Assembly (NCBI GenBank): GCA_030693425.1
Contig: JAUYAM010000002.1
Coordinates: 256,632-320,631, forward strand
From: a bacterium
GTDB taxonomy: Bacteria > Patescibacteriota > Minisyncoccia > Minisyncoccales > GWA2-46-15
Length of the DNA stretch: 64,000 nt
Direction of reading: 5' to 3'
Positions 8,833 to 34,505 of this stretch are shown piece after piece (the stretch's first letter is position 1; the number at the start of each line of letters is the position of its first letter). Below the pieces are notes generated by a model. It saw only the letters and a list, made by a program, of their open reading frames with translations, did no database searches and was not told the origin of the DNA. The position numbers and the translations under genes are program-made.

Positions 8833-9432
8833 TTACCCGACCAAAAACTTAAAGACTGAAAAAACAAGGGTATTGAGGAAGCGAAAACCAAAGAGAACGA
8901 AAAACACCAGCAGAAACGGGCCGTACTGATGAAAAAAAAGCCTGACTCTGGAAAACTTTTCCGGCAGCAAAGAAAAAAGGATCGACGAACCGTCGAGCGG
9001 AGGAAAAGGCACCAGGTTGAAAAATCCCCACAAGAGATTGTACAAAATAATCGTCCCTAAGAGCTGGATCATTAGCCCAGGCAACGGGAAAACCCTGATG
9101 ATGATGCTGAAAAAAACCGCCACCAGGAAATTGGCTGCCGGCCCGGCCAGGGAAACTTTCAACAGGCCCCACTTTTGATCTTTAAAATTATAAGGATTGA
9201 CCGGCACCGGCTTTGCCCAACCGAAAAGAGGCCCCCGGCCGGCTGTCACCATGAATAGAAGCAAAGGTACCAAAACCGAACCAAAAGGATCCAGGTGCTT
9301 TAAGGGGTTTAAAGACAACCGGCCCTGGTCCTTGGCAGTGTTGTCGCCCAGAGCTTCTGCGGCCAATCCGTGAGAAACCTCGTGGATGACCAGGGAAAAA
9401 AGCAGAACAACTAAAGTGAAAATCGTAAACAT
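8833..9432 (-). CDS. site-2 protease family (peptidase M50) membrane metalloprotease
   Basis: 199-aa polytopic ORF with HEVSHGLAA (HExxH) in the first TM and NLVPFPPLDGS near the C-terminal part, typical of M50. Confidence 0.8.
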   Translation of the reverse strand: MFTIFTLVVLLFSLVIHEVSHGLAAEALGDNTAKDQGRLSLNPLKHLDPFGSVLVPLLLFMVTAGRGPLFGWAKPVPVNPYNFKDQKWGLLKVSLAGPAANFLVAVFFSIIIRVFPLPGLMIQLLGTIILYNLLWGFFNLVPFPPLDGSSILFSLLPEKFSRVRLFFHQYGPFLLVFFVLFGFRFLNTLVFSVFKFLVG

Positions 9433-9523
9433 GAAATTATCTTACCACAAAAGGTTGTAAAAATACAGGTTTTAGTGTAACATTAAACCCGAACTAAAAC
9501 ATTAACCAGCATTAATAAACGTC

Positions 9524-9709
9524 ATGGCGAATATCTGCTCAATCTGCAAAAAAACTTCAACCGTAACCTGGAAGCTGAGAAAGCTCCGGGGAAAATACAA
9601 CCCCACCATCAAAAGAAGAAAGTATCCCAATTTGCAATGGGTTCGTTTGAATAATGGGAAAAGAGTTCGAGCGTGTACAAAATGCATCAAGGCAATGGCT
9701 AAAACATAA
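9524..9709 (+). CDS. rpmB: 50S ribosomal protein L28
   Basis: 61-aa basic ORF. CSICKK...RKYPNLQWVRL..GKRVRACTKCIK resembles bL28. Confidence 0.8.
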   Translation: MANICSICKKTSTVTWKLRKLRGKYNPTIKRRKYPNLQWVRLNNGKRVRACTKCIKAMAKT

Positions 9710-9715
9710 CGGTCT

Positions 9716-9845
9716 TAAAATCCAAATTTCAAAATCCAAATTACAAATAAATTCCAAATTCCAAAATTCTAAACCGTTTAAATATTTAAACTTTGGTCAT
9801 TGGATATTGTTTGGGATTTGATGCTTGGTGCTTGGAATTTAATAT
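9716..9845. repeat. long degenerate inverted repeat of A-tract/TCCAAA units around a perfect 16-bp palindrome
   Basis: GTTTAAATATTTAAAC at 9778-9793 is a perfect palindrome. The left arm carries AAATCCAAA/AAATTCCAAA units. The right arm carries TTTGGGATTT/TTGGAATTT units. Confidence 0.45.
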
Positions 9846-9848
9846 TTA

Positions 9849-9919
9849 CGGGCTGTAGTATAACAGTAGTATACCACTTTGGGGTAGTGGCGGTCCCGGC
9901 GCACCTCCGGGCAGCCCGA
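9849..9919 (+). ncRNA. tRNA-sized cloverleaf, possible atypical tRNA-Pro(GGG) or tRNA mimic
   Basis: 7-bp acceptor CGGGCTG/CAGCCCG plus A73. Anticodon stem with loop TTGGGGT (GGG, G37). 5-bp T stem CCCGG/CCGGG. However, the T loop is CGCACCT with no TTC, and the D loop has no GG. Confidence 0.3.
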
Positions 9920-9937
9920 CATCTAAACAAAAACCGT

Positions 9938-10810
9938 ATGAAACTTCTGCCGGTTAAATGTAATTTCTGTGGAAAAAAGTTTTATCGCTCGATTGGCAGA
10001 ATTAACGAATCTAAAAAATCTGGTTGGAAACAATTTTGCTCTCCACGGTGCCTATCTCGCCTTAGGACTACGAGACAATTTTTAACATGCGCCAATCCAA
10101 CTTGTGGGCAAAAATTCTATCGAGAGATTTCGCAAATAAAGATAGTTAAAAGATCTTTTTGTTCTTCATCCTGCACCGCCGTTTTTAACAACCGCGAACG
10201 CTATAAGAACCTGCCGCCAAATCTATGCGCTAACCCTTTATGCAGAAAACCGATACCGCGTGGAAGGAAATACTGCTCATCAGCTCACCGCATTAACCCA
10301 AAAAAGATACCGGAAGATTTACACAGAGAGCAGATTATTAATCGGATCAAAGATTTCTATCGAAAGCGGAAAAGAATACCGGTTAAGCGAGAGATGTACG
10401 GCATTTATAAAACAGCGAGATACTTATTCGGTAACTGGAATAATGCGGTAAAGGCGTCTGGCTTTAAACCGAATCCGGTGATGTTTTCGGAAAAACAGAT
10501 TGCCAACGATGGTCATATTTGCGATTCCGTCGCCGAAAAGATAATCGATAACTGGTTGTCTGCCAGAAAAATCATCCACCAAAGAAATGTCGCCTACCCC
10601 GAAAGTCCCTATACTGCTGATTTTGCCATCAATGGGAAATTGATAGAATTTTTTGGATTAGCTGGAGAAATGAAAAATTATGATAATATTATCTTAGAGA
10701 AAAGAAAGATATCTACAAAATCGAAAATCCCCCTTATAGAAATTTATCCCCGTGACCTGTTTCCTATTAAAAACCTCAATAGAGTTTTATCCAAACAATT
10801 ACTAGCTTAA
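9938..10810 (+). CDS. Zn-ribbon repeat / HEARO-like repeat / Vsr(DUF559)-like endonuclease-fold protein
   Basis: Start at MKLLPVKCNFCGKKF (ATG 9938). Three CxxCGK..F..FCSxxC modules. YLFGNWNNAVKASGF resembles the homing-endonuclease-associated repeat. The C-terminus YTADFAINGKLIEFFG is PD-(D/E)xK/Vsr-like. Confidence 0.6.
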   Translation: MKLLPVKCNFCGKKFYRSIGRINESKKSGWKQFCSPRCLSRLRTTRQFLTCANPTCGQKFYREISQIKIVKRSFCSSSCTAVFNNRERYKNLPPNLCANPLCRKPIPRGRKYCSSAHRINPKKIPEDLHREQIINRIKDFYRKRKRIPVKREMYGIYKTARYLFGNWNNAVKASGFKPNPVMFSEKQIANDGHICDSVAEKIIDNWLSARKIIHQRNVAYPESPYTADFAINGKLIEFFGLAGEMKNYDNIILEKRKISTKSKIPLIEIYPRDLFPIKNLNRVLSKQLLA

Positions 10811-10813
10811 AAT

Positions 10814-11378
10814 ATGACCAAATACATTCTCCACGGCGGCTATACCAAAGAAATAAATCGAGATAACGATTCATTCTTCACCGAAATCACTGCCGATGCT
10901 AAAAACGGGGCACAAATTTTGCTTTGTTATTTTGCCAGAAAAAGTGAAGAAACCCCCCGCGCTCTTTCGAAGAGACAAAAACAGAATAATTAAACACAGT
11001 AAAAATAAAAGATTAGAATTTGTTTTGGCTAGCGAAAATGATTTTGCTGAACAAGTAAGAAATGCTGACATAATTTTCCTTGCCGGCGGCAAGACGTTTC
11101 GGCTCGTCAAAAAACTTTCTAAATTTCCCGATCTCGAACGGTCCTTCAAAAATAAAATTGTCGTTGCCTCTTCGTCCGGTGTTTATGTTCTATCGAAATA
11201 TTTTTGCACGAATTTCCCGCCAAAACTCGGTAAGGGATTAGGAATTCTCAATATCAAAACCTTTTGCCATTATGACCAAAAAACATACGGCAAGTGGCTG
11301 AAAAAACTCATCGCCCATAAAAAGAGTTTGCCCATCCTCACTCTCCCCAATTACAAATGGGTAGTAATTTATAAATAA
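10814..11378 (+). pseudogene. peptidase S51 / class-I amidotransferase-like gene interrupted by a +1 frameshift in a C6 run
   Basis: ATG 10814 gives MTKYILHGGYTKE...LLCYFARKSEETP, then stops at 10991-10993. The 10896 frame continues ALFRRDKNRI...ADIIFLAGGKTFRL. The frames join at CCCCCC 10953-10958. Confidence 0.5.
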
Positions 11379-34425: not shown

Positions 34426-34433
34426 AAAACAAG

Positions 34434-34505
34434 AGATGCGGGGAGGATTTGAACCTCCGTACCCTGCTTTGCAGGCAGGTGCCTGAACCACTCGGCTACC
34501 GCATC
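34434..34505 (-). tRNA. tRNA-Cys (GCA)
   Basis: Canonical cloverleaf on the reverse strand. Acceptor GATGCGG/CCGCATC, D loop with GG, anticodon loop CTGCAAA, T arm GGAGG-TTCAAAT-CCTCC, discriminator U. No encoded CCA. Confidence 0.92.

Follow-up and report, generated by a model that had tools for sequence, protein, structure and literature searches.

The element at positions 9849-9919 of the window (the whole stretch of 64,000 nucleotides that was analysed) is best read as a functional elongator tRNA-Pro(GGG), present in a single copy, that has an alternative elbow and would read the codons CCC and CCU; we put the probability of this reading at about 85 %. Textbooks present G18, T54, Ψ55 and A58 as invariant bases on which the architecture of tRNA rests, and the G18-G19 / U54-A58 elbow consensus is a conserved feature of tRNAs without being part of their definition. 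The near-universal consensus G18 G19 / U54 U55 C56 R57 A58 was not present in the window gene, four of the seven positions being different: G18 was replaced by A (9865), U54 by C (9900), U55 by G (9901) and A58 by C (9904). An initial annotation, made from the letters alone, had reported the elbow bases of both loops as missing, which is correct for these four positions; G19 (9866), C56 (9902) and the purine at position 57 were kept, and with them the G19:C56 pair. The best reading of the comparison with homologous genes is that the tRNA is rewired and not reduced, since the altered bases co-vary, appear to be isosteric replacements and recur in other species. The features of the locus are compiled in Table 1.

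Table 1. Features of the tRNA-Pro(GGG) locus in window coordinates.
Feature	Position	Strand	Basis
rpmB (ribosomal protein L28), upstream neighbour	9524..9709	+	Pfam Ribosomal_L28 below cut-off; tblastn hit upstream of the tRNA in 12 relatives
AT-rich imperfect palindrome, 130 nt, between rpmB and tRNA	9716..9845	.	predicted folding energy -29.6 kcal/mol; confined to this genome
tRNA-Pro(GGG) gene, 71 nt	9849..9919	+	ARAGORN; RF00005, 45.2 bits; orthologues at the same syntenic site
D loop AACAGUA, 7 nt	9862..9868	+	RF00005 alignment; orthologue D loop AACGGUA
T arm, 5-bp stem CCCGG/CCGGG, closing pair G53:C61 intact	9895..9911	+	RF00005 alignment
T loop CGCACCU (C54 G55 C56 A57 C58 C59 U60)	9900..9906	+	RF00005 and homologue comparison
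ORF, 290 aa, homing-endonuclease-associated repeat	9938..10810	+	Pfam HNH_repeat PF18780, 34 bits

Two of the searches that the initial annotation had proposed, ARAGORN and the Rfam tRNA model, returned the gene. ARAGORN called a tRNA-Pro(GGG) at 9849-9920, and in a local scan RF00005 matched with its positions 1-71 at 45.2 bits (E 1e-8; gathering cut-off 29), about 15 bits lower than the canonical orthologues. The whole-window Rfam scan with default filters left the tRNA-Pro(GGG) unreported and listed the canonical tRNA-Cys at 34434-34505 alone. The aligned sequence confirmed the 71-nt cloverleaf described initially together with its acceptor, anticodon and T stems: a 7-bp acceptor stem CGGGCUG/CAGCCCG followed by U8 and A9, a 4-bp D stem, a 5-bp anticodon stem (arm CCACU-UUGGGGU-AGUGG), a variable loop CGGU of 4 nt, a 5-bp T stem, and an anticodon loop and a T loop of 7 nt each, with standard pairs only. 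The four stems are paired throughout, and G+C makes up 62 % of the gene in comparison to 44 % of the genome. Position C1 corresponds to 9849 and A73 to 9919; the CCA end is not encoded. The anticodon G34-G36 is located at 9881-9883 and G37 at 9884, and C1:G72 is formed by 9849 and 9918. The set of proline identity features named at the outset and established in E. coli, C1:G72, A73, G35 and G36, with G37 for TrmD in addition, was thus found complete. The D arm had been drawn differently, with a 5-bp stem GUAUA/UAUAC and no residue between D and anticodon stems. That drawing uses another register: in the covariance model and in more than 40 homologues a 4-bp stem lies at G10-U13/G22-U25 (GUAU/GUAU, two G-U pairs), homologues carry C13:G22 in this standard register, and residue A26 is present. 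Minimum free energy folding did not return the cloverleaf (-25.2 kcal/mol) but another structure at -28.9 kcal/mol. The gap of 3.7 kcal/mol is uninformative, since the canonical orthologue L047 also misses the cloverleaf, by 1.9 kcal/mol.

The genome (849 kb, 44 % G+C, 5 contigs, 100 % complete by marker genes) contains 49 tRNA genes. It belongs to an ultra-small CPR/Patescibacteria bacterium, in line with the related records retrieved, which are Paceibacterota and Gribaldobacteria MAGs. Proline tRNAs with the anticodons GGG (window), CGG and UGG were present in one copy each, no GGG isoacceptor other than the window gene occurring among the 49, and the anticodon set of the genome as a whole is complete. 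Without the window gene the set would lack this isoacceptor, as the inventory suggested in the initial annotation revealed. The same annotation had named a background-level covariance score combined with a complete canonical tRNA-Pro set elsewhere and no transcript of that size as the outcome refuting its proposal; the search returned 45.2 bits, and another GGG copy is absent from the genome. The codons CCU and CCC occurred with 10.0 and 11.2 per 1000 codons in long open frames and accounted for about 48 % of the proline codons. The gene might nevertheless be dispensable, because decoding of the whole CCN family by tRNA-Pro(UGG) is conceivable in principle. A trmD gene and a type-A RNase P RNA were found in the genome. 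The tRNA is probably co-transcribed with rpmB and cut out by RNase P; CCA would be added post-transcriptionally and G37 probably methylated by TrmD. A promoter and terminator scan of 9300-11000 detected near the tRNA nothing beyond the shuffled expectation and no promoter-like site directly upstream.

The gene order M50 peptidase (-), rpmB (+) and tRNA-Pro(GGG) (+) was kept in at least 12 relatives, belonging to the genus as well as to other families of the order. The window tRNA was 72-78 % identical over its full length to the tRNA-Pro(GGG) of relatives at the rpmB-adjacent site. The distance between rpmB and the tRNA is about 10-30 nt in the relatives versus about 140 nt in the window, where the AT-rich hairpin noticed initially does precede the tRNA. 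The homing-endonuclease-like gene 18 nt downstream was likewise verified; it begins with an ATG at 9938, has Cys-rich N-terminal modules and is separate from the tRNA. At the tRNA-Pro locus of 12 relatives neither the palindrome nor the HNH-repeat ORF (1.5-kb flanks searched for the latter) was found. As these relatives have the tRNA at the site without either element, the tRNA is to be seen as resident and its two neighbours as insertions. The mobile or integration context proposed for the locus hence applies to the flanking elements, which look inserted, and not to the tRNA, which lies at its ancestral site directly after rpmB. An assignment of the palindrome to a repeated mobile element was rejected, as the genome has a single full copy. 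At the same site, a genome of the same genus (G002, L008:1501-1691, rpmB-adjacent) carries a resident tRNA-Pro(GGG) of the A18/G55 type which is split in the anticodon loop and evidently dead. Its halves lie at L008:1501-1536 and 1659-1691, separated by an insert of about 122 nt that contains a complete canonical tRNA-Pro(GGG) at 1570-1640 and is bordered by a 12-bp inverted repeat, GGGAACTTGCCT / AGGCAAGTTCCC.

Canonical tRNA-Pro(GGG), represented by proL of E. coli and by the orthologues L002 and L047, shares with the window gene the cloverleaf, the anticodon, C1:G72, A73, G35-G37 and the 4-nt variable loop. L002 and L047 occupy the same genomic position after rpmB, and L047 differs from the window gene in five positions outside the D and T loops. 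Within the loops, the canonical G18, U54, U55 and A58 correspond to A18, C54, G55 and C58. The distribution of these states was recorded with a pattern search for tRNA-Pro(GGG) in 301 genomes of the order, in which positions 18, 54, 55 and 58 were left free. It detected 88 genes in 87 of the genomes. A18 together with G55 was present in 12 genes, G18 together with U55 or C55 in the remaining 76, and discordant combinations were absent in this tally by eye. In terms of D-loop and T-loop motifs, 73 genes had GG and UUC, three GG and UCC, eleven AG and UGC, and only the window gene AG and CGC. Parsing of the 43 distinct sequences by script assigned 27, 8 and 8 of them to three elbow states, again with no discordant case. 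A18/G55 was not tied to one sequence backbone but occurred on several. On a tree calculated from 57 non-elbow columns, which is short and has many unresolved forks, A18 and G55 required ten changes each, of which at least four were forced by supported branches. Both positions changed in the same direction in four of four independent pairs on supported branches and in ten of ten on all branches. Pair counts were taken from arms parsed by regular expressions, the MAFFT alignment having misplaced gaps in the D stem.

The second exchange, U54/A58 to C54/C58, is rare in the genomes covered here. Among the 88 tRNA-Pro(GGG) genes of the order, 87 had U/A at positions 54/58, the window gene C/C, and none was half-changed. 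In a phylum sample of 401 genomes, the window gene and one G54/G58 variant were the only proline tRNAs without U54. This variant (G637 C1:24391-24463, minus strand) is a tRNA-Pro(GGG) with the T loop GGCAGCA (G54, G55, G58) and the D loop AACUAGCA, and judged by these loops it adds a third combination at positions 54/58 to those seen with A18/G55. A scan with one genome per species considered tRNA-Pro with C54, C56 and C58, any base being allowed at position 55 and any sequence in the D loop. Four genes were retrieved: two tRNA-Pro(GGG) with the T loop CGCGCUA, one in a Gribaldobacteria and one in a Paceibacterota MAG, and two tRNA-Pro(CGG) with the T loop CGCACAU in two MAGs. A metagenome scan added five tRNA-Pro(CGG) and one tRNA-Pro(UGG), so that C54/C58 was found in ten other proline tRNA loci with three anticodons (GGG, CGG and UGG), representing eight distinct sequences including the window gene. 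All ten had G55 and a D-loop AG, and C54/C58 thus appears confined to the A18/G55 background. Across the eight sequences two-sided compensation was observed at acceptor pair 6:67, in all five anticodon-stem pairs, in two T-stem pairs and in D-stem pairs. Several C54/C58 genes are the sole gene for their anticodon, namely CGG and GGG in G301, CGG in G302 and GGG in G303. The backbone of the C54/C58 locus L019 is indistinguishable from that of the canonical L047 (G075), with 0 differences at 57 positions outside the D loop and the T loop, and on the non-elbow tree three to four origins of C54/C58 were needed.

Some observations accompany these loci. The T arm of the window gene is the sole C54/C58 T arm in its genome, and the low-scoring tRNAs taken from G301 and G303 had A18/G55 with U54/A58 only. 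The claim that C54/C58 is specific to proline tRNAs was dropped. A metagenome contig of 230 kb (Ga0070717_10000012, L023:3900-7700) holds an array of at least 12 closely spaced tRNA genes whose CCA is encoded. Nearly all of them have G55; the bases at positions 54/58 are C-C for Pro(UGG), A-U for Gly and for Phe, G-G for Asn, and U-A for others. A DUF3800-V RNA (RF02964, 67.6 bits) is located at L017:6634-6729 on the minus strand, about 100 nt from the Gribaldobacteria C54/C58 tRNA-Pro(GGG), and a SAM riboswitch (67 bits) at L019:3921-4035, also on the minus strand, near the C54/C58 tRNA-Pro of that locus.

The T-loop motif involves a contact between its position 2, which is U or G, and a purine intercalated between positions 4 and 5. 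In the window tRNA, A18 with G55 would replace the intercalating contact of G18 with U55 or Ψ55, as in riboswitch T-loops, the outer G19:C56 pair being kept; C54-C58, matching in shape, would replace the reverse-Hoogsteen pair U54-A58 that closes the T-loop. The predicted geometry of A18-G55 and C54-C58 relies on the covariation and on published base-pair tables. U54/A58 belongs to the trans Watson-Crick/Hoogsteen pairs (PMC4551918, PMC7566577). In this geometric family U-A and C-C share the isosteric group I4.1, and the exchange of U-A for C-C has been given as typical of isosteric substitutions (PMC2673412); C-C was termed near-isosteric in a later paper (PMC4551918). T-loops of FMN and cobalamin riboswitches have mostly G at position 2 (UGHAA) and receive an adenosine as donated nucleotide, and tRNA T-loops differ from them at this position (bioRxiv 10.1101/2022.12.26.521914). 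They resemble the window gene in a five-base T-loop that combines G at position 2 with a donated A, corresponding to G55 and the putatively intercalated A18, but are not tRNAs and have U-A as 1-5 pair in place of C-C. Given the isostericity of U-A and C-C and the riboswitch precedent for G with A, both elbow changes would lie within the known T-loop grammar, and the stacking face of G19:C56 is kept. A replacement of T54-A58 within the same geometric family has been described for eukaryotic initiator tRNA-Met and some tRNA-Ala, which have A54-A58 (PMC7566577). Their A-A pair is longer than U-A, whereas the C-C pair predicted for the window gene is isosteric with it, and they retain the canonical G18/Ψ55; variants of this type were reported as not observed in bacteria or archaea (PMC7566577). 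Canonical elbow nucleotides have also been lost in metazoan mitochondrial tRNAs, in a reduced genetic system (PMC2777451). There the loop sizes vary and the interaction is often lost, in contrast to the window gene with its standard loop sizes and pairwise compensated changes. Literature searches for A18-G55, C54-C58 and CPR with TruB retrieved no description of either variant.

The canonical elbow bases are also targets of tRNA modification: TruB forms Ψ55, TrmA or TrmFO m5U54, and SpoU/TrmH Gm18. None of TruB, TrmA, TrmFO and SpoU/TrmH was found in the genome of the window by searches with positive controls. A candidate for TrmI was rejected; the single GCD14-like match in the genome was below the cut-off and belongs to a generic UbiE-type methyltransferase. 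Since the organism appears to lack the modifying enzymes, nothing would tie the elbow positions to the canonical bases, and the loss of TruB, TrmA/TrmFO, TrmI and TrmH may have freed them from G18, U54, U55 and A58. All 12 A18/G55 genomes of the order were without TruB, as were G301-G303, and the canonical elbow was present in each of the 13 genomes that have both TruB and a matched tRNA-Pro(GGG). This association is perfect yet statistically weak, because about 82 % of the order is without TruB anyway (27 of 151 genomes have it), and it is not decisive enough to present TruB loss as the proven cause. The absent enzymes are suggestive of a relaxed constraint after their loss. That the A18/G55 elbow works in translation in this organism is indicated by its single tRNA-His(GUG) gene (contig C5:104654-104725), which also has a D-loop AG and a UGC T-loop, hence A18/G55. 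We consider it slightly more probable than the contrary that A18/C54/G55/C58 represents a second, modification-independent elbow that evolved repeatedly and stepwise, A18/G55 preceding C54/C58, in bacteria without TruB and the methyltransferases for positions 54 and 58.

The initial annotation had offered three possibilities for the element: a degenerate or pseudo-tRNA, a mimic of a tRNA, or a tRNA that functions with a reduced structure. A functional tRNA is favoured, though not a reduced one, as its arms have full length; pseudogene and mimic are disfavoured by orthology and synteny, the sole copy, the stem compensation seen in relatives that share the T-loop, and the heavy use of CCY codons. 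Decay would mean that an old tRNA-Pro(GGG) lost its elbow and fell out of use, with tRNA-Pro(UGG) covering CCY. Four altered near-universal positions, the reduced Rfam score and genome-specific insertions on both flanks would fit such a course, and the A18/G55 copy of the sister genome G002 at the same site is split and evidently dead. We regard decay of the window gene as improbable all the same. A decaying gene would be expected to have broken stems or a truncation and an altered state that is not conserved in other lineages; the window gene instead has four perfect stems with 62 % G+C in a 44 % genome, its changes hit exactly two interacting pairs, one of them by a textbook isosteric swap (PMC2673412), and its loop recurs in other species with compensated stems, as the sole isoacceptor. 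Moreover, the genome offers no canonical GGG copy, and CCY codons are abundant.

An employment outside of ribosomal decoding, either as a specialised tRNA or as a regulatory mimic whose elbow avoids parts of the translation machinery, has a slightly smaller chance still. The model for it is the non-proteinogenic tRNA-Gly of S. aureus and S. epidermidis, which is likewise without the conserved D- and T-loop elbow bases and serves in peptidoglycan synthesis (PMC4574755). The ribosome, RNase P and T-boxes all contact tRNA at the elbow (PMC4810234). However, the staphylococcal tRNA-Gly has lost G19 and C56 in addition to G18 and U55, and proteinogenic copies coexist with it (PMC4574755). The window gene has kept the G19:C56 stacking platform and is the sole copy of its anticodon, with no proteinogenic GGG gene alongside. 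The A18/G55 elbow is shared by tRNA-His, which is essential and encoded by a single gene, and in G301 the CGG and GGG isoacceptors, each a sole copy, are both C54/C58. Least probable, at a few chances in a hundred, is a foreign tRNA that arrived with a phage or a mobile element such as the cassette of HNH-repeat gene and palindrome, or that is the remnant of an attachment site. The homing-endonuclease-associated gene 18 nt downstream and the palindrome upstream might be taken as signs of such an origin, as might the rewired elbows in the tRNA array of the 230-kb metagenome contig (L023) and the tRNA cassette nested at the same locus in G002. The tRNA has full length and the ancestral position next to rpmB, though, and relatives possess it without the flanking elements. 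Its backbone groups with 98 % branch support with the chromosomal L047 and L019 of the same order, and resembles the outer resident shell in G002. The reading as a resident, working tRNA-Pro(GGG) is therefore preferred.

Routine tools have difficulties with such genes. Default ARAGORN reported none of the ten other C54/C58 proline tRNA loci (L017-L026). RF00005 reported one of four that were scanned, the UGG gene of L023; the C54/C58 tRNA-Pro of L017, L018 and L019 were unreported, that of L019 even in a scan of 221 nt, and those of G301 and G303 were missing from the RF00005 lists for these genomes. The window gene is a borderline case that is still caught by ARAGORN, and the C54/C58 loci of L017-L026 would drop out of routine annotations. 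Considering these ARAGORN and RF00005 results, some apparently missing isoacceptors in CPR genomes may be hidden rewired-elbow genes, and CPR tRNA inventories may be incomplete. On the preferred reading, all four textbook invariants are exchanged for covarying alternatives in an elongator tRNA of a bacterium, and related genes occur in several lineages. The genomes without the modifying enzymes suggest that part of the invariance stems from the modification machinery instead of the fold. Natural elbow variants could serve as scaffolds for engineered tRNAs.

Deviating elbows were also seen in other tRNAs of the genome, 11 of the 49 differing from UUC at positions 54-56. A18/G55 was observed in a second tRNA-Cys(GCA) (C5:110340-110411), the other tRNA-Cys (window 34433-34505) being canonical, and in one initiator-like tRNA(CAU) (C3:216505-216577, minus strand), of which the genome has two. 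Four tRNAs had C55: Ala-UGC, Ile-GAU, Thr-UGU and Val-CAC. The tRNA-Leu(UAA) (C5:110536-110622) with the T-loop UUGGAUU and the D-loop AACUGCUAG was read as C19:G56, and the tRNA-Asp (C3:216179-216258, minus strand) with the T-loop UUUAAAU and the D-loop AGUCUGACUAA as A19:U56; in both, the 19:56 pair of the elbow appears to have been exchanged for another Watson-Crick pair. A second tRNA-Trp(CCA) (C3:2577-2652), with the T-loop UUAAAGU (A56), a normal-looking GG D-loop, six of seven acceptor pairs and a CCA end encoded in the gene, could be of foreign origin or impaired.
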